From a virus (lineage: Duplodnaviria; Caudoviricetes), in IMG/VR virus record IMGVR_UViG_3300005573_001593, positions 1 through 64,000 of that record: a stretch of DNA of 64,000 nucleotides; one strand, written 5' to 3'. Below, piece by piece: positions 1 through 61,353 of the stretch; within the stretch, counting starts at the first letter, position 1; every line of letters begins with the position of its first letter. The notes beneath the pieces were generated by a model. It worked only from the letters and a program-made list of their open reading frames with translations, had not been told where the DNA came from and did not search any database. The position numbers and the translations under genes are program-made.

Positions 1-744
1 CTAGAAGCCGAACAGATGCGGGATGAGCGAGCCGAGCAGAAATCCGCCGAGAGCGGAAAATCCACCAACAACAATGACTTCAAGTGAGCTGCGGAAGAGA
101 TTCAGGTTTGCCAGATTGCCTTTGATGATGCCGACGATGATGAGCGCGACGATGGTAAGGGCAATCGAAATGGGCAGCGCGACACCAACGGGAAAGAAGA
201 AGTAGGCGATCAGCGGGAAGATCGAGCCGATGACGTAGGATATGCCCATCGTCATCGCTTCGGGGATGCGCACGGTGTTTGGCTCGCTCATCAGCCCCAG
301 CTCCTTCTCGATCATCGTCTTGTGATAGGACTGCGGATAGCGCATCAGGATGCTCGTCATGCGGCGCGCATCCTCCGGATCGACGCCTTCATGCATAAAG
401 AGCAGCTCCATCTCGCGCTGCTCATTCGCTGGCTGGCTGCGGATTTCGACCAGCTCTTTGGCGATTTCGGTTTGCTGCACCTGCGCTTCCGCGCGTCCGG
501 AGATGAATTCGCCCGCGCCCATTGAGAGGGCGCCCGCGAAGGCTTCCGCGATGCCCGCCACGATGATCGCCTGCGTATTGTGCGTGCCGCCGGCGACACC
601 AGTCACGACGCCCAGCGGGACGAGCAGCCCATCGAGCGAGCCAAAGACCAGCTCACGAATCCGGCCGAGCCGGTCTATGCGCTCCCGCTCGGCATGCAAG
701 TGCTCGTGCAGCGGATTATCCGTCTGCGAAACAGCCTGATCCAT
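1..744 (-). CDS. VIT1/CCC1-family iron/manganese transporter
   Basis: IRELVFGSLDGLLVPLGVVTGVAGG and AGALSMGAGEFIS are VIT1 motifs; hydrophobic C-terminus. Start reassigned to ATG at 744 (MDQAVS), which has a GAGG RBS; the ORF-track extension to 951 looks non-coding. Confidence 0.9.
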   Translation of the reverse strand: MDQAVSQTDNPLHEHLHAERERIDRLGRIRELVFGSLDGLLVPLGVVTGVAGGTHNTQAIIVAGIAEAFAGALSMGAGEFISGRAEAQVQQTEIAKELVEIRSQPANEQREMELLFMHEGVDPEDARRMTSILMRYPQSYHKTMIEKELGLMSEPNTVRIPEAMTMGISYVIGSIFPLIAYFFFPVGVALPISIALTIVALIIVGIIKGNLANLNLFRSSLEVIVVGGFSALGGFLLGSLIPHLFGF

Positions 745-1284
745 GTACCTCGTCCTCTCTCTGGCGTGCGCCCTGGCTCGACGACCGCCCTGCATGCACA
801 TCGCGTGCCGGAAGCATCGGCGGGGCCATCCGGGGAAACAGCGGCGCATCCCCATTTCTCCGGTCTGCTTGTATGATAGATCTGGCTCTGGGGCATATCC
901 AGTGGTCGCGCTCAAGCGCATGCCGCGTGGTTGATCAACATGCTTCCACATCCTGTCTATTCAGGCACTGGCATGAACCGGTGATGCGATTGTGACTGGA
1001 TGGAGTAGAAATGATTCCGCCCGCATGGTATACTCCACCTGACCTGTTGTCAGTGTAGGCGTCGGTGTGGCGTATTGCTGCTGAAGTGCCGCGTGGACGG
1101 ATAGCTGACCTCTTTTGGCGTCTCTCCCAGATGGCTTCCCTGCGTGGCGCGCATCCTTTCCCCCGGTTTCGTTTCTCACTCGGTCATCCAGGCAACACCA
1201 GGTGCCACCTTGCCCCCAGACTACGCAAGCGTGGGCCTGGCCAGTGGTCACGCGAGGAATAGCGTGACCAAGCGAGGTACGCCA

Positions 1285-2748
1285 ATGTCTACTGACTCTG
1301 GTGGCCGGCACTCTTCCCCTTCTGGTCCCAGGAAATGGCCTTTCTTTGGCCACCGTGAATCCGAACAGTCACCCACCCCATCGCCAGCGGACGGCTCTCC
1401 GACAGTCGAATACCAGTACGACGTAGCGGACATTGATGAGGAGGAAATCCCCTCCATGAAGCCGAGCGATTCATCCGGTTCAAGACCAATCAACGTAAAT
1501 CCCGCGAACTGGGGCCAGCACTCCACCTCCCGCCCCTCGCGCTTCCTCAAACTCTACGATGAGATCAAGGCGCAGCCACACGGCGAGGAATCGCTCTGGC
1601 CGATCTACAACCACGTACACCAAATTCAGCACAGCGCCCCGGGGGCTGCCTCGCGGGTACTCGATGAGTATGTGCCTAGTTTGCATGAATATTCGGCATC
1701 TCCGGACCTCTGGCACAATCTATCTATCGTCGCCAGCCGCATTGATAATGAGCAGGCGGAATTGCGCTTTGTGCTTCATGGTCTTGCGCAATGGCCCGAA
1801 GATGTTGATCTTCTCTGCGACGCGCTGGAACTAGTTCATAAGTCTGGCGAGCAGACCGATCCGGCCGCAGCCGAAGTCATCTGGAACGTTCTTGAGAGCA
1901 TGAACCGCGCGATTACTGGACCATTCTGGCGTTTCTGGGTATTCGGAGCGCAGTACTACATCCGCGACAGAGGAGATCCCGGACGCGCCATGGAGTTGCT
2001 TGATGAAGGACTTCTTCTGGTGCAGCGCGATGGTCTGTACAACATTCTCAACGCGTACCGAGCGGTCCTGATTGATGCTAAACCTACACGTGTTCTGCGT
2101 TCGCTAGAGGAGGTAAAAGCCTATCAGGGCGAGATCCTCAGACAACTTGAGGAAAAATACGTTCTCGGCATTGCGCTTGGCGTCGAGAATGCCCATATAC
2201 TCGCCGTGGCGCTTGCAAAACTCTATCAGGAGCGGGCAGGCGAAGGGCTGGGGGATGACGATTCCGAAACAGACGGGAGCATTCGCGAACAAAATCTGAC
2301 GAAGGCTCTATTCTACCTAGACCTTGCCGAGACACTCTTTACTGGCTCGGTTAATCACAACATCGCGGCCATCTATGAAGCACGCGCCCGGATCATGATG
2401 GTGCAGCATCGCTTTGGCGAGGCCCTGCGGCACATGCGCAGTCTGCCGCCTACACGCCAGCAAGAACCAACAGTTGCCGCTATGATGCGCCTGGCGGCGT
2501 TGAGCATTGGCGAAAATCCAGACAGCGGGCCAGAAAACGGAGGGAGCGGACGAGGTGCAGGAAGCGGAGGCGATGCACCTGGGGCAGGCGCAAGCAAAGC
2601 GGAGATCATTAGCGAGTTCCTCAATGATCTGTTCGCTTCACAGGGAGCAAAGCTGTTGGCGATTGCCAGTGAACATCCACAAATTAGGCAAATCGTGCTC
2701 GCGGTCGCATCTCAGTTGAACGCCTCGGACCCGGAGGTGCCTGCATGA
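1285..2748 (+). CDS. TPR-like alpha-helical protein with disordered acidic N-terminus
   Basis: Long ORF with amphipathic helical repeats (e.g. AMELLDEGLLLV, ALFYLDLAETL, ARARIMMVQHRFGEALRHM). Start at ATG 1285 after GAGG. Stop overlaps the next start (ATGA). Confidence 0.6.
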   Translation: MSTDSGGRHSSPSGPRKWPFFGHRESEQSPTPSPADGSPTVEYQYDVADIDEEEIPSMKPSDSSGSRPINVNPANWGQHSTSRPSRFLKLYDEIKAQPHGEESLWPIYNHVHQIQHSAPGAASRVLDEYVPSLHEYSASPDLWHNLSIVASRIDNEQAELRFVLHGLAQWPEDVDLLCDALELVHKSGEQTDPAAAEVIWNVLESMNRAITGPFWRFWVFGAQYYIRDRGDPGRAMELLDEGLLLVQRDGLYNILNAYRAVLIDAKPTRVLRSLEEVKAYQGEILRQLEEKYVLGIALGVENAHILAVALAKLYQERAGEGLGDDDSETDGSIREQNLTKALFYLDLAETLFTGSVNHNIAAIYEARARIMMVQHRFGEALRHMRSLPPTRQQEPTVAAMMRLAALSIGENPDSGPENGGSGRGAGSGGDAPGAGASKAEIISEFLNDLFASQGAKLLAIASEHPQIRQIVLAVASQLNASDPEVPA

Positions 2749-4193
2749 TGAAAGTCGCCGCGTTACAACGTCACTTTCCGAATTTCTCGCATGATATAGA
2801 CGAACTCGACCATCTTGACGACGAACTCGGGCGAGGCGATCTCGCTAGGGGTATAGCAGATGAGATTCGAAAGAGTCCGGATGGATTAGGGCCTCGTGTC
2901 ATTGGCATCTATGGGTGGTGGGGCGCGGGCAAATCCTATTTACTCAGTCAGATAATCCGACACCTTCTTGCGGGCAATGAGACGGATACAGAACGCGGAA
3001 TCGTGGTGGTTCGCTACCGCACGTGGGAGTATGAGACGCAGGGCGATCTCACCCCGGGCCTTATTTTGTCGATGCGCAATGTCGATCAGCAATACCGGCA
3101 TACGAATCCGTCGAATCCGCCATTGCTGGTGGGAAGGGGCAAATCAAGCTACAAAGAGCAGGCAAATATGCTGCTCAAAACTGTTCTGCGGACTACGGCG
3201 TTCGCGGTGGGGATGGCGGCTGCCATGCTGCCGCAGGGGCAGGCGCTGACGTCCATGATTCAGTGGTATACCAGCAGCACGATTCGCGATGTGAACCAGG
3301 CACGCCGACGAGCATCAAATCATGGCAAACTAGCGCCCTATGAGGACGATGCGGTTCAGAGAATCAAGGCCGAGATGCAGAGTCTGGTGGACGGCATCAT
3401 CGAAGCGGCGAGAGCGGGAAACGAAAAGCGCAAAGCCTCATGGCGCGTAGTCGTTTTCATCGATGACCTTGACCGGTGTTCACCCGAGAACATGGTCAAC
3501 ATGTTCGAATGGCTCAAAGTGCATCTGGTCGTGGATCATTGCGTCTACGTGCTTGCCCTTGACCATGTCGCGGCGGCTCGTGCCATTGTTGGCAGGTACA
3601 AAGAATACCTGGGCGACGATCCGGACCTTTCCTATGGTTTTCGGTATCTCGAAAAGTTAGTGGACCGCGAACGGGAACTTGTGGAAAGTCCTAACGTGCA
3701 GCGCATGGCCCTGATCCAGATGTACGGGCAGAATACCCGCTACAGCACAGTGAGCGATGTGGCGAAGGAGCAATCGGGCGGCGACTTTCCTGGCATTATC
3801 TACATTGACGAACTCTTGAGCCTTCGCTCACTTGCGACTCCTCGCACGGTGCTCAAGATCGTAGACAAATATCTGCGTGTGCTGGACGTTATTGATGTGC
3901 AGCAGCTCCAGCATCAACTGCCCTCGGCCTATCACGTCTGGATTCTGTTCATGATCGCCGTCTATTACCGACTCGATCCAGATGATCTCGCAAAGTTTGT
4001 GCGTGGTCAGGGGCCACTCTATCAGTTGTTGCTAACGCCAGAGAAAGAGCAACTCCTTCGGGATATAAGAGATCCTCTCCTCGAGTTTTGCCACTTCGCG
4101 CAGCACCTGGGAAAATCGGGGGGCGAGGCGCTGCGTCCACCGAGCAGCGAAGTCCTGCATAGACTGGCAAACATCATCCTGCAGACGGCCTAA
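2745..4193 (+). CDS. KAP-family P-loop NTPase
   Basis: Walker A VIGIYGWWGAGKS, Walker B VVVFIDDLDRC, YLEKLV motif, and a hydrophobic insert between the Walker motifs, as typical of KAP NTPases. Confidence 0.85.
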   Translation: MMKVAALQRHFPNFSHDIDELDHLDDELGRGDLARGIADEIRKSPDGLGPRVIGIYGWWGAGKSYLLSQIIRHLLAGNETDTERGIVVVRYRTWEYETQGDLTPGLILSMRNVDQQYRHTNPSNPPLLVGRGKSSYKEQANMLLKTVLRTTAFAVGMAAAMLPQGQALTSMIQWYTSSTIRDVNQARRRASNHGKLAPYEDDAVQRIKAEMQSLVDGIIEAARAGNEKRKASWRVVVFIDDLDRCSPENMVNMFEWLKVHLVVDHCVYVLALDHVAAARAIVGRYKEYLGDDPDLSYGFRYLEKLVDRERELVESPNVQRMALIQMYGQNTRYSTVSDVAKEQSGGDFPGIIYIDELLSLRSLATPRTVLKIVDKYLRVLDVIDVQQLQHQLPSAYHVWILFMIAVYYRLDPDDLAKFVRGQGPLYQLLLTPEKEQLLRDIRDPLLEFCHFAQHLGKSGGEALRPPSSEVLHRLANIILQTA

Positions 4194-4266
4194 ACTGGCG
4201 TACAAGCGTCAGAGGTGGCGGGAGGGTCTGCGTGAAAGTGATCTCCTGCCATCTGGTACTTCCCTC

Positions 4267-4295
4267 TTGATTTATTTGAACATATGTTCTATATT
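4267..4295 (+). promoter_or_regulatory. sigma70-type promoter (TTGATT-N17-TATATT) with LexA/SOS box GAACATATGTTC (4278-4289) in the spacer
   Basis: Directly visible AT-rich island in GC-rich DNA. Perfect GAAC-N4-GTTC palindrome, the LexA box of Firmicutes/Actinobacteria, also reported for Dehalococcoides (Chloroflexota). Confidence 0.75.
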
Positions 4296-4495
4296 CGTCA
4301 CATGGGTGATGGCTCCGTAGTGCGGTTCGTGTAGCGTCGTCTGTACTGAAGAAGGCGGGCGCGGCTCCCTGGCCGGGGAGGATGCGCCCGCCAGCGCGGT
4401 GAGCCTGAAACCGGGCGCCGCTCTCTCCCGTGGAAGATCGCGGGTTGGGAGCGGCGCCTTCGTCCATTCTGGGGAGCATGCATGGGGAGGAGCGG

Positions 4496-5953
4496 ATGAG
4501 GAGCGAGAAGGCCGAGGTGCGGCGTAGGGCACCGGATGTAACACTGGATGCGATGCCGGAGGAGGAGACCGCGCCGGTTGCCCAGGCGCGGCTCGATGGC
4601 GAGGCAGGGCGGGCGGCGGACGTGGCGCGCGTGGGTTTCGCGCCGATTGTCCGGGTGGATGCGCCGAGCCGCGAAGTGGAACTGTGCGCGACGAGCGAGG
4701 CCGTCGATAGCCACGGCACGGTGTTTGATTATGGCGCGAGCAAGGATGCCTTTACGCGCTGGGCGGGCAACGTTCGCGAGATGCACGACCGCCGCGCCGT
4801 CGGCAGGAGGGTGCAGGTGCGCTGCGACGACGAGACGCGCAAGATCTTCGTGCGCGTGCGCATATCGCGGGGAGCGCAGGACACGTGGGAGAAGGTGCTC
4901 GATGGGACGTTGCGCGGCGCGAGCATCGGAGCCAGCAACGTTACCTGGGAGCGGCAGGTACGGCGCGTCGCGGCAAGTGAGCGCCCGGTGAACGTCGCCA
5001 CGCGCTACGACCTGGTTGAGTTGAGCCTCGTGGATAGTCCCAGCAATCCCGATGCGCTGGGCATCGCCATCGTGCGTGACGCCCTGCCCGATGTGGCGCT
5101 GCTGGATGATCTGGGGCCGGAGCATACGGACGAGGGCACTCCATCTGGCGAACCATACGCGCCGGTCGTTTCGCCGGCGCTGACCCTGCCGCAGCGGACG
5201 CGCGCCAGACGGGAACGCTCCTCGCATCGTGAGCGCCATCGCGGTGAGCCTTCGCGCCAGTCGGGGGCAACGTTGTTCGGCGATACGGATCTGTTTGGTC
5301 CGGTGGAGGCCCGCATCGCGCGCGAGCGGGCCATTCGCGGCTGGGCAGAGCTGGCGGAGGGTGCGCCTGAGACGGCGGCTGGCGCAGCGATTCCGGGGTG
5401 CATGGAGATGCCGCGTGTGCGCGAGGCGATGGGCCAATCCGCGACGCGCCGGGTGGAAACCGCGGATGTAGGTGGGCGGCTGCACAGCGCGGCGCGGGAG
5501 CTGATGCGCGGCTGCCGGTGCCCTCGCTGCGCGGGCGCGCTGGCGGCGCTTGGCGAGACGGAGGAAACACGCGACATAGGGGGCGCGCAGCCACTGGAGG
5601 CCGCGTCGGTGGCCCGGGCGCTCGCGGCGGGACTTTCGGCCAGCGCGGAGCGGCTGGAGCACGTGGATGGCAGCGTGCGCGAGATGCACACGCTGCTCAG
5701 GGCAGCGGTCAGCCAGATGGCGGGAACTGTCGGCGATCTGCGCTCGCGGCTGGATGCGCTGGAGCGTCAGCCTGTGCCGGGAGGTCCCGCGGCGCGACCT
5801 GTGGAGAAGCCGGGCATACTCGCGGCGGGAAGCGGCGTGCAGGCAGCGGAACAGGCGCGGGCGCTGGAATCGCTCGCTGGAAGGATCAGCGATCCGCAGG
5901 CGCAGATCGCCGTCGCGGCGGAGATCATCCGGCTGCGGCAGGCGGAGATGTGA
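4496..5953 (+). CDS. HK97-type prohead protease fused to a scaffold-like coiled-coil region
   Basis: Caudovirus prohead protease pattern: SEAVDSHG, NVREMH (His), GTLRGASIG (Ser), YDLVELSLVDSPSNPDA. C-terminal coiled coil LRSRLDALERQP and an internal CRCPRC. Start at 4496 after GGAGG. Confidence 0.8.
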   Translation: MRSEKAEVRRRAPDVTLDAMPEEETAPVAQARLDGEAGRAADVARVGFAPIVRVDAPSREVELCATSEAVDSHGTVFDYGASKDAFTRWAGNVREMHDRRAVGRRVQVRCDDETRKIFVRVRISRGAQDTWEKVLDGTLRGASIGASNVTWERQVRRVAASERPVNVATRYDLVELSLVDSPSNPDALGIAIVRDALPDVALLDDLGPEHTDEGTPSGEPYAPVVSPALTLPQRTRARRERSSHRERHRGEPSRQSGATLFGDTDLFGPVEARIARERAIRGWAELAEGAPETAAGAAIPGCMEMPRVREAMGQSATRRVETADVGGRLHSAARELMRGCRCPRCAGALAALGETEETRDIGGAQPLEAASVARALAAGLSASAERLEHVDGSVREMHTLLRAAVSQMAGTVGDLRSRLDALERQPVPGGPAARPVEKPGILAAGSGVQAAEQARALESLAGRISDPQAQIAVAAEIIRLRQAEM

Positions 5954-6057
5954 AGAACGGGGCGTTTTGAGCGCGGAGGGTCGTAGATTGCGGCACACGG
6001 CTGCTCGCGCGAGGACGATCCCAGGTGAAACGTGGGGATGTGGAGGGGGAACAGACG

Positions 6058-6459
6058 ATGACTACAGGACTCTCGACCGGCGCACCGGCTGGGACCGGCA
6101 TTACAGACGAGACGGTCGCGCTGGTGCGCGACGCGATCGCGGATACGACGCGCGCCATTACGACGGCCAGCGGGCTGATCGGCTATGAGCTGGAAGCGCC
6201 GGCGAAGGTGATCGTGCCGGTGACGACACCGCTGGTCAATCTGCTGCCACGGCGGCGTGGCGCGGGCGTGGATGTCGTGCACTGGAAGGCGATCACGAGC
6301 TTTGATACGGCGCGCAACTGGGGCGTGCTTGCGGATGGTGGGACGCCGAGCCAGGTGACGTATGCCGTGGCAGCCATGCAGAATACGCACCAGACGATCA
6401 GCCTGATGAAGTACTCCACCTTCCCATCGCAAGAACCCGCTTGTCATCCAGATTCATGA
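6058..6459 (+). pseudogene. Major capsid protein, 5' fragment truncated by prophage insertion
   Basis: Follows the protease with a strong RBS. GLIGYELEAPAKVIVPVTTPLVNLLPR...HWKAIT resembles the N-terminus of phage MCPs. Only 133 codons; GC3 bias collapses after about 6408, immediately before att-like repeats and the integrase. Confidence 0.7.
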
Positions 6460-6510
6460 TCTGTCTACCTCATCCGCTAGCGCTCAGTGATTGCAAAAGT
6501 GATTGCAAAA
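6397..6510. mobile_element. Putative left attachment junction of the integrated element
   Basis: Palindrome ATCAG-C-CTGAT (6397-6407) at the compositional break. Perfect tandem 12-mer AGTGATTGCAAA x2 (6486-6497, 6498-6509) resembles integrase arm-type sites. Lies downstream of the integrase. Confidence 0.6.
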
Positions 6511-6527
6511 CCTCCCAGAACGCTCTT

Positions 6528-6710
6528 TCACGCGCTTACCTGATGAGGTTGCTCACGTCGCCGCAGATAGTCGCGCAGCACCCACACGATCTCGCTGTTG
6601 ATCGATCGCTCGTTCTCACGTGCTGTCTGCCGTATCCCGTCGAGCAGTTCCTGCGGGAGACGGATGTTGGTGCGCGCTTCGCGTTGTCCGGTCTCGTGTC
6701 TTCGTATCAT
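6528..6710 (-). CDS. Arc-like ribbon-helix-helix DNA-binding protein
   Basis: TNIRLPQELLDGIRQTARENERSINSEIVWVLRDYL is an Arc/Mnt pattern. Confidence 0.8.
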   Translation of the reverse strand: MIRRHETGQREARTNIRLPQELLDGIRQTARENERSINSEIVWVLRDYLRRREQPHQVSA

Positions 6711-6753
6711 GCTGCCAGTGTACTGCCGCAGTGCTGCCATTGTCAAACCCTCC

Positions 6754-7896
6754 TCACCAACCCAGCGCGACGGCTATCGCGGTCGCAGCATCTTCCAACA
6801 TGTCCGGTAGCACATGCGCGTAAATGTTGAGCGTGATAGTGATGTTACTGTGCCCGAGCATCTCCGAGACGACCTTGGGATTGACATTCTGCCCCAGGAG
6901 CAGCGTCGCGGCCGTGTGGCGCAGGTCGTGGAAGCGGATGGTCGGTAATCCCGCGCGTTTGAGAATGCGCGTGTGGCGCCAGCGCACCGCGTCGTGGGTG
7001 AGGGGCCGGCCAATCTCGTCACTGAAGACGACATCGTGCTCTTCCCAGACTGGACCTACGGCCAGCCGTTCGAGGCGTTGCACCTGCCGGTGCTGCCGCA
7101 GCGCCTCGGCTACTGGTGCGGCAATGGTGATCTGGCGGCGCGATGCTCGCGTCTTGGGTTCGGTCCAGACCGGTGCACGCCCCGCATCACTGCCTACCGT
7201 GCCACGCCACTTCAGTGTGGCCACGACACGAATCTTGCGCTGATTGAGGTCCACCTCGCTCCACCGCAGGGCCGTCAGTTCGCCAAGCCGCAGACCTGTC
7301 GCGAGTGCCAGGGTGAACAGCGCGGATAGCCGTTCCGTCTGTGCCTCTTCCAGATACCTTCGCGCCTGCTCGCGACTGAGCGGATGGATGTCGAATCGCC
7401 GGACCGCCGGCGCATCTACCATATCGGCGACGTTGCGCGGCACGATCCCGATCCGTACCGCGCGTTTGAGCGCGAAGTGCAGGATGGAGTGGACGGCCCG
7501 TACCCGCCGCGCGGACAATCCTTTCGCCGCACATGTGGCATAGAGCGCCTGCACGCGCTGCGGGGAGAGCTGCGACAACCGCACGCGCCCAATGTCAGGC
7601 AGTATGTGTAGCCGGATCAGTGCGTCGTAATCGCGCCAGACCTCCTCAACCAGTCGCGGGGGACGCATGGTCTCCATCCAGGCGGCGAGATACTGCATTA
7701 CGGTCTGCCGATCATCTGCGGCAAAGACGCCTTGCTCCAGGTCGCGTAACGCTTTGATGCGCTTGGTGTTGGCTTCCTGCCGGGTCTTGCCGTAGAGCGC
7801 TTTGCGTTTGCCGTTCGGCAGGCTGATCTGTGCTACCCAGCGACCGTCGTTGCGATGGTAGATCGTGCCTTCTCCATGCCCTCGTCGTGCCACCAC
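6754..7896 (-). CDS. int: Tyrosine integrase (phage/Tn916-like)
   Basis: N-terminal RGHGEGTIYHRNDGRW arm-binding region; catalytic ATGLRLGEL (R), FHDLRH (HxxR), LGH and IYAH (Tyr). Confidence 0.95.
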   Translation of the reverse strand: MVARRGHGEGTIYHRNDGRWVAQISLPNGKRKALYGKTRQEANTKRIKALRDLEQGVFAADDRQTVMQYLAAWMETMRPPRLVEEVWRDYDALIRLHILPDIGRVRLSQLSPQRVQALYATCAAKGLSARRVRAVHSILHFALKRAVRIGIVPRNVADMVDAPAVRRFDIHPLSREQARRYLEEAQTERLSALFTLALATGLRLGELTALRWSEVDLNQRKIRVVATLKWRGTVGSDAGRAPVWTEPKTRASRRQITIAAPVAEALRQHRQVQRLERLAVGPVWEEHDVVFSDEIGRPLTHDAVRWRHTRILKRAGLPTIRFHDLRHTAATLLLGQNVNPKVVSEMLGHSNITITLNIYAHVLPDMLEDAATAIAVALGW

Positions 7897-57658: not shown

Positions 57659-60600
57659 CTAGATCCCCATCCCTGCGGTCGCGCCGCGGCCACCATACTC
57701 CACCGCGAGGCCCGCAATCTCGTTGAAGATCTGATAGATCGTGTTGATATCCACGTTGCCGGTACCCTGAATGTTGATGTTGCCGATGTTTTGCTGAGTG
57801 ACAGTGCCTAGCGTCGCCGGCGTAATGTTGCTCCCGAGTGGCTGGGCACGTCCGGCGAGCCCATGCACCTCAGCAATGAGCTGCTGCAGGAGCGCCGGCA
57901 CACTGCCGCCATTGCCGCCGAGTCCACCAACTGGGAGTTGTGGTGTGAGGCCGCCGAGCGTGCCACCAGGGGTGAGGCCGGTTCGCATCGCCTGAGCAAT
58001 CTGCGCTGTGGCCTGCTTCACTCGATCCTGCTGCGCGTTCAAACCTGCTACGAGCGTGTCCCCCATGTCGGGCATCCAGCGATCGAAATCGGCCAGCGGC
58101 CCTTCGTCCGGTACGGAGAAATGCAGGAAGGATTTGATCTTGTCCGCGACGCCAGATACGGCGCTGGTGACATGTCCAATGGCGCCGGTGATGCCTGAGG
58201 CGAGATTGCGAATCATGTCGCCGCCCCACCCGAGCATATTGCCGATCAGCCCGCGCATGATGCCGCCGATTTTGCCCGGTAGACCGGTGATGGTGGAGAC
58301 CACGGAACTCACCAGCTGACCAGCCTTACCTGTCGCCAGATGCACCAGGTTGTCGAAGTAGGACACCGCGATGTTGACCATGAGGGTGATGTGCTGCAGG
58401 AAATCCACCTCCAGCCGCACGGCTTCGTTGAGGATGTTGTCCACAAACTGCCCGATAGCCGCGAGCACGCGGGTCTCCATGCTCAACACCCAGGAGATCG
58501 CCCCGTTGACCATCGCTGAGATGGCTGAGAGGACACGCACCTCCATCTGGAAGAACCACGTAATGACGCTGTCGACCAGATGCGCGATGCCACTTAACAC
58601 CTCGCTCGGAAGCGTCTGGGTGAGCCAGGTAATGATGCCATGCACCAGATCGGGAATCACCGAGTGTCCGATCAGGTGATCGAACAGCTGCTCGAAGAAA
58701 TGGATCACGCCCTGGATGAAGTTGACGACACCGGTGAGCGCCCCGCCAGTGAGTGCGTCAAACCACTGTGCGATCCCCAGGATGGTGTGCCCCACGAACG
58801 AGAGCACGAAGCCCAGCCCGTTCTGGAACAGCAGCCCGAGCTGGCGGAGCATATCACCCGCGATGGCCGGTATCTTACCGAACTGCCCGGAAAAGACCGC
58901 CTGGACGATCCTGCCAAGATCACCAAACAAGCGGAAAATAGCGGCAAAGAAGCCCGCGATTTGGGGGAGCGCCGACAGGAAACCGCCGATGACGCCCGAG
59001 ACCAGGCCCAGCACGACCTTGAGCACAGTGCCAATCACCGTGCCGACGATCTGGAGTACAGGCGCGAGCGAGCGGAAGGAGTTGATCAGGTCATGTACTG
59101 CTGGCGCGAGCTTGGGCCACGTATTCTGCCACTGCAGACGCACCATCGTCAGGAACGTGTTGATGGTGTTGTGGATTTCCGTGATAATGGGCTTGAGCTG
59201 GCCACCAAGAAAGCCGCCCACCTGGGTCAGCTGAGTACGGAACCGGGTAAAAATCAGGATGCCGAGCGTGATGGCACCAGCGATCAGCAACAGGGGTACG
59301 AGGACGGCCCCGAGTGATGCCGCCATCCCCATCAGCGCGGGAATGGCGCTGAGCGCGCCCTGGGCGGCTCCCATGAGGCCGGTCCGGAGCAGTCCGAGCA
59401 ACTGCGCCGGATTGCCGAGCTTGCCCACGAGTTCGCCCAAAGAACCGGTGAATGTTCCGATGTTGCTGACGCCTTTGCCGACCCACGAGAGCGCCGTCGG
59501 ACCGAGCCGTGCCAGGTCACTCAACTTGCCTTTCAGGACTTCAAGCGCCAGTCCGGGGTGTCGCACAGCCAGACCGAACTGAAGCAGTTTGGTTGAGATC
59601 CCTTCCCCAAAGGCCGTACCGAACCGTCCTGCTTCGCCAACGACCGATCCCAGACCGCCTTTGAGACTGAGGAACAGCTTGCCTAGCGGCGCACCCTTGC
59701 CCAGCATGGACGTGAAGATGCCACTGACCATGTTCCCCACGGGCCCGAACGCCAGAAACGCCGCGCCCACGGTTGCGACCGCTCCGGCGATGCCCAGGAA
59801 AGCCGCGCGCATCGCCGCGGGATGCGCGCTGGCCCACGCCGAGAACCGGTTGAGCGCAGGCAGGATCTTGTCACCGATCTCCTTGACCAAGGGCTCCAGC
59901 GCGTCACCCAGCTTGATGAGCGCGTTCTCACCCGCGACCTTGAGGTGGTCCCACTCCGCCGCCATCGTCTGCTCGTGGATCTTGAAGGCGTTGGCCGTCA
60001 TCCCCTGCGACTGCGCCATATCGCCGAGGATCTTGTTGTAAGCCGCTCCGCCATTGGTCAGCAGTTGCATCGCCGCCTGAAAACCTGCCGCACCACCGGT
60101 CAACTTCAGCATTTCCGCCTTGTTGCCCTTGGTGATCTCCATGAGGTAGTGCAGCCGCCCAATGAGATCAAGCGACGAGAACTTGGCGCTATCGAAGCCC
60201 AGGCCCATCTTCTTGGCGTTGGTCGCGACGGCGGCGGCGTTGATGCCGATAGCGCGGAAGAGATTGGAGAGCTGCATGCCCGCGATGTGCGCTGAGGACC
60301 CGCTGAGCGTCATCGTGGACATGGCCGCGGCAACTTGGTTGAAGCTGAACCCTGCCGCATTGCCTGTCACCGCCGCTCGTCCAATGGACGACGACAGCTC
60401 CTGCATCGTGGTCTTGCCATCGCGCAAGGCCACGAGCAGCATGTCCTGATAGTTCTGCGCCTGCTGTGCGCCCGCGCCATACGCGTTAAGGGCGCTGGTT
60501 AGTGCATCAGCGTCCGTGGACGCGTCCACCATGCCTGCCGCGCTGGCTTCCGTCACGACCTTGAGTACGCCCATCGCGTCCTTGGCCTGTACGCCGGCGG

Positions 60601-61255
60601 ACAGCACGTAGTACAGGCCGTCACCCAACTGCTTGGCCGGCACGCCCAGTTGCCCCGACATACTGAGCACCTGGGAGTTAAACTGGCTCATCTGTGCCGC
60701 GCTCTGCCCGGTAAGCGCCTGCACCACCGACATGGATGACTGGTACTGCGATGCCATGTGGAGGGCCGCGATACCCGCGCCGGCGGTCGCAGCGGTCGCG
60801 GCCAGGATCGGCATCCCGAGCCCGCCCATGCCCGCGCCAAAGCCTTCGCTGGAGCTGCGGGCCGCGTCCAGACTGCCCGCCGCCTCATCCGCCGTCGCAC
60901 TCAGTTCTGAAAGACTTGCGACGGCTCCGGATACCTCCGTGTCCAGCACACCGATCTGGGTGCCGGCTGCGTCCGCCGCTTCGCCCAGACCGCCTACCGA
61001 TTCGGCCGCCGCTGCGATCTGATCCGAAAGCGCCGAGAGATTCTCTTGCAGCGACGAGAAGACGGCATCCAGGCCGCCAATCGAACCGGAAACGCTGGAG
61101 AGACTGTCCTCAATGCCCGCCATTGCGCCGGAAATCGTTTCGCCCAGGCTCGATGCCGCTTCCGCTAGGCTGTCCAGTGAGGCAATCGCCTCATCTACGG
61201 CCGCCGTCGCACCGCCGGAGTCGCCTTCAAGCTCGAACAGGATGTTCTCATCCAT
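57659..61255 (-). CDS. Tape measure protein (TP901-like)
   Basis: 1198 aa, Ala/Gly-rich; PhageMin_Tail-like core, hydrophobic middle, aromatic 11-residue periodicity. Confidence 0.92.
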   Translation of the reverse strand: MDENILFELEGDSGGATAAVDEAIASLDSLAEAASSLGETISGAMAGIEDSLSSVSGSIGGLDAVFSSLQENLSALSDQIAAAAESVGGLGEAADAAGTQIGVLDTEVSGAVASLSELSATADEAAGSLDAARSSSEGFGAGMGGLGMPILAATAATAGAGIAALHMASQYQSSMSVVQALTGQSAAQMSQFNSQVLSMSGQLGVPAKQLGDGLYYVLSAGVQAKDAMGVLKVVTEASAAGMVDASTDADALTSALNAYGAGAQQAQNYQDMLLVALRDGKTTMQELSSSIGRAAVTGNAAGFSFNQVAAAMSTMTLSGSSAHIAGMQLSNLFRAIGINAAAVATNAKKMGLGFDSAKFSSLDLIGRLHYLMEITKGNKAEMLKLTGGAAGFQAAMQLLTNGGAAYNKILGDMAQSQGMTANAFKIHEQTMAAEWDHLKVAGENALIKLGDALEPLVKEIGDKILPALNRFSAWASAHPAAMRAAFLGIAGAVATVGAAFLAFGPVGNMVSGIFTSMLGKGAPLGKLFLSLKGGLGSVVGEAGRFGTAFGEGISTKLLQFGLAVRHPGLALEVLKGKLSDLARLGPTALSWVGKGVSNIGTFTGSLGELVGKLGNPAQLLGLLRTGLMGAAQGALSAIPALMGMAASLGAVLVPLLLIAGAITLGILIFTRFRTQLTQVGGFLGGQLKPIITEIHNTINTFLTMVRLQWQNTWPKLAPAVHDLINSFRSLAPVLQIVGTVIGTVLKVVLGLVSGVIGGFLSALPQIAGFFAAIFRLFGDLGRIVQAVFSGQFGKIPAIAGDMLRQLGLLFQNGLGFVLSFVGHTILGIAQWFDALTGGALTGVVNFIQGVIHFFEQLFDHLIGHSVIPDLVHGIITWLTQTLPSEVLSGIAHLVDSVITWFFQMEVRVLSAISAMVNGAISWVLSMETRVLAAIGQFVDNILNEAVRLEVDFLQHITLMVNIAVSYFDNLVHLATGKAGQLVSSVVSTITGLPGKIGGIMRGLIGNMLGWGGDMIRNLASGITGAIGHVTSAVSGVADKIKSFLHFSVPDEGPLADFDRWMPDMGDTLVAGLNAQQDRVKQATAQIAQAMRTGLTPGGTLGGLTPQLPVGGLGGNGGSVPALLQQLIAEVHGLAGRAQPLGSNITPATLGTVTQQNIGNINIQGTGNVDINTIYQIFNEIAGLAVEYGGRGATAGMGI

Positions 61256-61353
61256 CGGGATGGCTCCGTAGAACGTGGGTTCCTATTGCGTCTGCCTGCT
61301 GGCGACGCTATAGTGTGGGCAGCGGCAAGCAAGTAGCACTGGAGGCTCACAGC

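Follow-up and report, generated by a model that had tools for sequence, protein, structure and literature searches.

The DNA analysed here, hereafter the window, is a stretch of 64,000 nucleotides corresponding to positions 1 to 64,000 of the 87,533-b IMG/VR record IMGVR_UViG_3300005573_001593. Between positions 4267 and 6459 it contains the front of an operon of two phage-type head genes, coding for a prohead (head maturation) protease and a major capsid protein, preceded by a promoter bearing a putative LexA operator. The promoter, of the sigma-70 type (TTGATT, 17 nt, TATATT), is found at 4267-4295 on the plus strand. The 3' part of its spacer is a perfect GAAC-N4-GTTC palindrome (GAACATATGTTC, 4278-4289) that touches the -10 element. 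A consensus scan of positions 3800-6800 detected 3 promoter-like sites, this one included, versus 0.5 +/- 0.8 in shuffled sequences. The bare palindrome pattern is not significant, as 2 copies occur in the window versus 0.79 expected and 19 out of 100 shuffles reach 2. The weight of the 4278-4289 box consequently comes from its conservation in orthologous promoters, presented below, and not from the rarity of the pattern. The promoter is followed by a structured leader of approximately 200 nt (fold z = -3.6). Its conserved part (4392-4472, plus strand) contains a small hairpin, CGGTGAGCC..GGCGCC, the 3' arm of which overlaps the base of a long G+C-rich hairpin.

The protease gene (4496-5953, plus strand) encodes 485 aa. 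Its open reading frame (ORF) extends from a GTG at 4430 to 5953 (507 aa), although the ATG at 4496, which is preceded by a GGAGG-type ribosome-binding site, is the likelier start. Residues 72-216 of the 507-aa ORF match the head maturation protease family phrog_9427 (E 1.7e-34), while Pfam Peptidase_S78 gave no match at E 0.01. The protein contains DSHG and GASIG motifs, which may be the catalytic His and Ser motifs of the S78-like family. The long C-terminal part is rich in Ala, Arg and Glu, has no match in the profile search and is taken to be a fused scaffold. The gene is single copy in the record. The capsid gene starts 104 nt downstream with an ATG at 6058, and its first 117 codons plus two bases (6058-6410, plus strand) are in the window. 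No portal or terminase gene was found upstream of the operon in the window. The GC content reaches 0.71 in the protease gene and 0.66 in the capsid gene, versus 0.60 in the prophage located downstream and 0.55-0.57 in two genes located upstream. Thus, the promoter with its perfect box, the protease/scaffold and capsid gene order and the lack of an upstream portal or terminase reported in the initial annotation are all confirmed, with the additional presence of a leader between promoter and genes, and the absence of portal and terminase genes next to the pair also holds for a clade of relatives. The GC content, described there as much higher than that of the prophage, is indeed higher, but moderately so.

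The native capsid frame ends within codon 118, where a prophage is inserted. The 5' part of the gene matches only positions 17-107 of the 491 positions of the phrog_13692 profile (E 3.4e-15), while positions 113-489 of the same profile match on the same strand at 86352-87518 of the record (E 5.1e-39). The remaining 389 codons are found outside the window, at 86366-87518. The 16 nt of the attL core (6395-6410) recur exactly in the attR core, located at 86350-86365 of the record, and these direct repeats lie inside the coding frame. Rejoining the two halves across one att core, as precise excision would do, restores in silico a 506-codon open frame that is 79-83% identical to intact orthologues. 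Neither half of the capsid gene nor the protease gene contains stops or frameshifts. The capsid gene is split rather than truncated; consequently, no intact capsid protein can be produced here unless the phage excises. The att core is specific to the capsid allele of this host, the homologous site in other capsid genes exhibiting 1-3 mismatches, and no second insertion at this site was detected among the genomes scanned for the capsid gene. The last 42 nt of the gene have no exact match in the scanned metagenome contigs.

At about 79.95 kb, the insert corresponds to a complete temperate siphophage; it extends to position 86349 of the record, and its left 57.6 kb lie in the window (6411-64000). 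Next to attL, it encodes a tyrosine integrase (6754-7896, minus strand; Pfam Phage_integrase, E 4e-30; phrog_1, E 9.5e-75) and an Arc-like ribbon-helix-helix regulator (6528-6746, minus strand; Pfam Arc, E 9.9e-11), possibly an excisionase or a repressor. Tape measure, Dit and fibre genes are found in the window, while adaptor, SU10-type capsid, 1029-aa protease-scaffold, portal, TerL and DnaC-like loader genes lie beyond it. The possibility that the prophage lacks head genes and relies on those of its host was rejected, given that it encodes its own TerL, portal, protease-scaffold, SU10-type capsid protein and adaptor. Also rejected was the possibility that it is a close relative of the interrupted module: its portal shares 22% identity with that of the module, and pairwise comparison of the adaptors and of the capsid proteins revealed no significant similarity. 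By sequence comparison, the head and neck proteins of the two are remotely related. A second perfect box is present inside the prophage (61271-61282), 16 nt upstream of the tape measure gene (57659-61255, minus strand), and its 12 letters are identical to the lexA operator of related genomes. This box may have arisen by chance, with 0.79 expected per window, or may be an SOS input into the tail operon.

Profile matches and structure prediction identify the product of the capsid gene as an HK97-fold (SU10-type) major capsid protein into which a beta-rich domain is inserted. The C-terminal half encoded by the record has no Pfam match by itself; the orthologue at locus L006 matches SU10_MCP with 35.3 bits (cut-off 24.1). 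A model of an orthologue, generated from a 116-sequence alignment, reached a pLDDT of 79 and a pTM of 0.76 (11 close sequences gave a pLDDT of 35). Foldseek matched this model to the capsid proteins of Pa223, SU10 and HK97 with E-values of 6e-13 to 2e-7 and a probability of 1.00; the SU10 and Pa223 matches have E-values of about 6e-13 and TM-scores of 0.64-0.68 by target. Encapsulins and the capsid protein of the gene transfer agent RcGTA are among the lower-ranked fold matches. No useful match emerged when PDB sequences were searched with profiles of the capsid protein and of the two neck proteins.

Related loci were sought by a protein-guided scan of one genome per species, and a metagenome scan added more. 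Gene calls are ORF-based, and several genomes are metagenome-assembled genomes (MAGs), some of them long-read assemblies with frameshifts. The genome scan revealed 33 loci. Uninterrupted loci, whose search in Chloroflexota the initial annotation had proposed, were thereby recovered in approximately 24 Ktedonobacterales MAGs in which a protease gene is followed by an intact capsid gene. Of the 169 genomes of the class, 42 carry the capsid gene, usually in a single copy, and most of these carriers belong to the nearest ~50. Three architectures were distinguished. Type A loci encode the protease, the capsid protein, a YggT-like membrane protein, a head-tail adaptor, two small neck proteins and an EEP-family nuclease. 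Type B loci, syntenic in 5 species, consist of the protease and capsid genes only, located between a divergent DeaD helicase gene and EcsC/ABC transporter genes. Type C loci (L018, L024, L075, L154 and L147, the latter an IMG/VR viral contig) contain in a row the protease and capsid genes, two small genes and genes for an adaptor, a neck protein, the portal, TerS and TerL. One type C cluster is preceded by DnaC-like and methylase genes. Single genomes may hold types B and C, or A and C. In genome G055 (L153/L170, G055:C1:2860000-2877000), about 6.4 kb separate the capsid gene from the rest of its cluster; after the cluster comes a 1172-aa virion-structural-like ORF that has a box-like promoter and a leader of its own.

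The evidence for dispersal and selection comes from these relatives and not from the genome of the window. In all 5 type B genomes, the portal gene, a small gene with TerS and TerL genes, and the adaptor gene with two neck protein genes occupy separate syntenic loci. The solo portal is 72-74% identical to the type C portal, and solo TerL (53-61% identity) and adaptor (51-56% identity) genes were likewise found, in 5 of 5 genomes in each case. One 910-kb contig has the capsid gene at 130 kb, the adaptor gene at 556 kb, the TerL gene at 607 kb and the portal gene at 827 kb, so that the loci are 50-700 kb apart. The flanks of the dispersed loci are host genes, including those for an ABC transporter, a histidine kinase, an M20 peptidase, a WYL regulator, an AlkZ glycosylase, GcvT, MFS transporters and proline dehydrogenase. 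The loci are syntenic across 4-5 species, and no integrase gene was found beside the dispersed chromosomal loci. With head genes scattered over at least 4 loci hundreds of kb apart, the set is too dispersed for a mobile element. The solo TerS-TerL operon (L053 2667-4831 and its orthologues) directly follows genes for a WYL-domain regulator and an AlkZ-like DNA glycosylase, with CHAP-domain proteins encoded nearby, a setting that suggests a DNA-damage neighbourhood and a possible lysis function. One of the neck proteins is tail-terminator-like by Atlas structure, a weak lead.

These genes are under purifying selection in the relatives. The dN/dS ratios are 0.068 for the capsid protein, 0.11 for TerL, 0.12 for the neck proteins, 0.17 for the portal, 0.24 for the adaptor and 0.30 for the protease-scaffold, the neighbouring host genes mostly falling within 0.12-0.19. 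Pairwise dS values of the head genes (0.46-0.77) are in the range of those of flanking host genes (0.42-1.2, most of them 0.5-0.9). One genome, G003 (L022, L049, L054), departs from this pattern: its capsid gene is distributed over several frames with stops, its portal gene is interrupted by approximately 4.3 kb and its TerL gene is also interrupted, while the adaptor gene is intact. This breakage may reflect joint decay or loss of the system, or partly long-read error.

The promoter box is conserved along with the genes. When 7 orthologous promoters are aligned, no variation is seen in the TTG, the box or TAT..T. Perfect boxes occupy the same promoter position at L005, L006, L007, L022, L023, L011, L060, L063, L064 and L153, such that the half-sites are invariant while N4 drifts in at least 10 independent loci. 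This perfect-box set includes all type B loci, the window, L011, three metagenome loci and the A-like cluster of G055 (5.07 Mb); 4 further lineages have a box with one mismatch. In the 5 type B genomes, TAGAAC-N4-GTTCTA was found in every case directly upstream of the start of the best lexA homologue. In relatives, uvrA is preceded by a one-mismatch box in the same -35/box/-10 layout, and the promoter of the TerS-TerL operon repeats the design of the capsid promoter with a box having 0-2 mismatches. This constitutes good sequence evidence that the box of the capsid operon is a conserved LexA-type operator exerting putative SOS control.

The leader is shared among dispersed loci as well. Leaders of the protease and adaptor operons have an invariant motif, CGGT.AG.C ... 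G.CGCCGC, which forms the small hairpin with C-G to U-A covariation, and the long hairpin is often followed by a U-run. Across 19 sequences, 93.6% of cells maintain pairing, compared with 84.3% for shuffles and 43-69% for slid controls; covariation reaches a score of 0.36, versus 0.19 for shuffles. The leader of the window scores 75 bits against the corresponding covariance model, R1 (E 2.8e-21), and no Rfam family matches it. Each type B genome has 6-8 copies of R1 and the complete genome G055 has 24 (copies in related genomes at L055-L059, L050-L054 and L159-L169). Copies mark the protease and adaptor loci, the interval that separates the small gene from TerS, and further loci, most of them behind a box-like promoter. 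These further sites include primase-helicase genes and a conserved locus encoding a 506-aa protein, which falls near Dit tail proteins in the ESM Atlas (score 0.86, a weak lead). The covariance-model scan found no strong copy at portal loci, in the resident prophage or in type C clusters, and a leader cassette common to the prophage and the operon was accordingly rejected. From its structure and covariation, we propose that the leader could act as an antiterminator/terminator device and that R1 is a candidate new cis-regulatory RNA. The 5' motif of the leader loosely resembles the ops element of RfaH-type antitermination, a candidate likeness only.

Based on these observations, the operon is probably part of a domesticated, multi-locus, SOS-wired system for head assembly and DNA packaging, switched off here by a prophage. 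It is the vertical inheritance and purifying selection of the genes that make domestication and wiring to DNA damage the best reading. Positions 4267-6459 would represent the beginning of an operon of phage origin carried on the chromosome of a Ktedonobacterales (Chloroflexota) host. With a LexA operator in the promoter spacer, the operon would remain silent until DNA damage leads to RecA-stimulated cleavage of LexA. The leader would then impose a second checkpoint by antitermination, the small 5' hairpin competing with the terminator-like hairpin, as its structure and covariation suggest. In the relatives, comparative genomics shows the protease-capsid pair to be one module of a vertically inherited set, long maintained under selection and clustered in some genomes but scattered in others, which also comprises the portal, TerS-TerL, adaptor and two neck proteins. 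Such a set could be GTA-like (GTA, gene transfer agent) or an immobilised capsid-forming satellite, and its heads may use tails made elsewhere. In this host, an 80-kb temperate siphophage has integrated site-specifically within codon 118, disabling the module for as long as it resides there; its precise excision would restore the open 506-codon capsid gene. A broader proposal, that a Ktedonobacterales clade keeps a GTA-like particle system encoded at scattered loci, governed by LexA operators and a new leader RNA, and subject to a phage off-switch through the capsid att site, is one we put forward tentatively, as we regard it as somewhat less probable than not.

The initial annotation described a stand-alone, domesticated, DNA-damage-induced capsid. 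The pair is isolated at its locus but, judging from the portal, TerS/TerL and adaptor/neck genes located elsewhere in the chromosomes of relatives, it would not be self-sufficient. Domestication and damage control are both supported by host-like inheritance, selection and a conserved box resembling the lexA operator, although the capsid gene is interrupted here. As for the conservation of the box itself, it is perfect in at least 10 loci and degenerate elsewhere. Indeed, several observations weigh against the reading proposed above. In the main type A clustered clades, the left half-box is kept while the right half is GACC, with two mismatches, and the covariance-model scan found no leader in the main clustered clades; SOS wiring is thus not universal. 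Portal loci of relatives have neither box nor leader. The combination of box and leader is also found ahead of primase-helicase genes belonging to likely mobile elements, and may therefore be a regulatory cassette of a phage family and not a host invention. No clear tail, lysis or regulator genes could be tied to the system, the Dit-like and tail-terminator-like assignments being weak. Finally, the capsid protein of the window forms its own lineage outside the well-studied two-gene clade, and the record ends 15 nt past the capsid stop, leaving the downstream architecture of this operon outside the record.

That early end of the record would also suit an operon belonging to a mobile satellite or compact phage resembling those phage-inducible chromosomal islands that form capsids (cf-PICIs), with portal, terminase and integrase genes downstream and the prophage nested in a mobile element. 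Type C clusters do hold all genes in one row, and one such row follows DnaC-like and methylase genes. The gene pair preceding the promoter in the window is, moreover, island-like and of low GC content. We consider this quite unlikely, however, as the phage-like clusters lack a perfect box and exhibit at best weak leader matches whereas the window is strong in both, and as the window contains no integrase, replication or repressor gene upstream of the operon. Related phage-like clusters that unite the pair with portal and terminase genes do exist, but every lineage possessing both box and leader that was open to inspection is chromosomal, with host genes on its flanks. Alternatively, the locus may be a decaying prophage remnant devoid of present function, its palindrome being left over from an SOS-responsive phage promoter. 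Cryptic fragments of head genes are frequent, G003 has apparently broken capsid, portal and TerL genes, and the capsid gene is interrupted here with no obvious harm to the host. Yet a remnant is improbable given the intact reading frames of the protease gene and of both capsid halves, orthologue dN/dS ratios of 0.07-0.30, interspecies dS values that equal those of the adjoining host genes, synteny kept across species and box half-sites maintained while N4 drifts.

SOS-induced heads could also function as an anti-phage or parasitic device that steals tails or packaging resources from an induced prophage, in which case the resident phage would have disarmed it. The gene set indeed resembles that of capsid-forming PICIs, whose tail-less capsids take phage tails (10.1101/2025.02.11.637232). 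Furthermore, as far as PMC5052747 relays Ubeda 2007, the packaging/interference operon I of Staphylococcus aureus pathogenicity islands (SaPIs) is LexA-controlled. The prophage sits exactly in the capsid gene, and a gene pair including a KAP NTPase adjoins the operon. This explanation nonetheless remains rather unlikely: excision upon induction would restore the capsid gene during the SOS response, so that integration there offers little lasting defence, the capsid genes of relatives differ from the att core by 1-3 mismatches with no second insertion seen, and the head and neck proteins of the prophage are remotely related to those of the host. An encapsulin-like nanocompartment or an empty decoy shell, packaging no DNA, would account for the pair being alone at its locus, and the HK97 fold is common to encapsulins, which are among the weaker fold matches. 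We nevertheless find it highly improbable. A fusion of maturation protease and scaffold is a feature of phages and not of encapsulins, the best fold matches are phage capsids, and no cargo gene lies beside the operon. In addition, portal, TerS/TerL and adaptor genes of the same ancestry co-occur, with TerL strongly constrained. An encapsulin identity was accordingly rejected, and the nanocompartment listed among the options of the initial annotation is contradicted by the protease-scaffold gene directly upstream of the capsid gene and by the co-occurring portal and terminase. The presence of portal, TerS/TerL and adaptor/neck genes of the same origin elsewhere in the chromosomes of relatives favours a DNA-packaging particle over a nanocompartment.

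The domesticated, SOS-wired system proposed here shares features with several known ones. Like GTAs, the relatives have phage-derived structural and packaging genes in the chromosome that are vertically inherited and under purifying selection, distributed over several loci so that a particle cannot carry its own genes, and putatively tied to the stress regulation of the host; the RcGTA capsid protein is moreover among the fold matches of the capsid model. RcGTA itself has a multilocus 'genome' (PMC5026251) and receives an SOS/LexA input (PMC6473078). The system differs from GTAs by its phylum, Chloroflexota (no paper linking GTAs with Ktedonobacteria was found), by a more extreme dispersal, with capsid, portal and terminase genes at different loci, and by LexA-type operators located directly in the capsid and terminase promoters, whereas RcGTA acts through CckA/CtrA/GafA. 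It also has a leader hairpin cassette and no established tail genes, and is known from its genes alone. The cf-PICIs produce tail-less capsids and use phage tails (10.1101/2025.02.11.637232). They resemble the relatives in the presence of TerS, TerL, portal, protease, HK97-fold capsid, adaptor and connector-type proteins and in the lack of an evident tail, which is compatible with tail-less capsids docking onto foreign tails. However, cf-PICIs are compact mobile islands with an integrase, att sites, replication genes and helper-dependent induction; unlike them, the genes studied here are scattered among host genes, syntenic and host-like in dS, and therefore do not form a mobile island. The SU10-type capsid protein and the scaffold fused to the protease constitute further differences.

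A capsid-related operon located outside the phage late operon and directly under the SOS repressor is also found in SaPIs, whose operon I is, in the account of Ubeda 2007 cited in PMC5052747, a LexA-repressed operon for packaging and capsid morphogenesis. The latter encodes TerS and capsid-size-redirection factors, with no capsid protein or protease, and resides on a mobile island. The SU10/HK97 head modules of phages have the same capsid fold, an S78-like protease gene before the capsid gene and a scaffold. The chromosomal forms differ from these in not being preceded by terminase and portal genes, and in the phage-like clusters the order is protease, capsid, neck, portal and terminase. The interruption of the capsid gene recalls active lysogeny and regulatory switches such as skin in sigK and the comK prophage of Listeria. 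Here too a prophage lies in an ORF behind a short att core and precise excision restores the gene in silico; in this instance, the interrupted gene is itself a phage-derived capsid gene, and any regulatory excision would be hypothetical.

Few lineages are known to have domesticated phage particles (i.e., GTAs, tailocins, capsid-forming satellites), and the way in which hosts gain control over such particles is still an open question. If correct, our interpretation would provide the first domesticated GTA-like system in Chloroflexota and a new regulatory design for domesticated virus particles. One order of bacteria would exhibit dated intermediate stages, from phage-like cluster to chromosomal cluster to fully dispersed genes, with direct SOS wiring readable from the promoters and a candidate leader common to dispersed loci. 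The route from virus to host organelle would become testable by ordinary genetics in cultivable Ktedonobacteria. The prophage in the capsid gene would constitute a natural on/off experiment opposing a temperate phage to a particle system, whether in conflict or in co-operation.

Other features concern the neighbourhood of the operon. Upstream of the promoter are genes coding for VIT1, a 534-aa protein and a KAP NTPase. Of the host flank (1-4260), VIT1 alone finds a match in related genomes, with at most 76% identity, and no tRNA gene was found in the window. The gene for the 534-aa protein overlaps the start of that for the KAP-family P-loop NTPase (Pfam E 3.4e-19). This pair (1144-4193), directly upstream of the capsid promoter, has a lower GC content than both of its flanks and is an island-like, possibly defensive unit. 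In type A loci L013-L017, L019, L025 and L026, a small divergent gene precedes the promoter with the degenerate half-box; its product shows a weak SH3/KOW-like match to the C-terminal domain of RimP and may be an alternative regulator.

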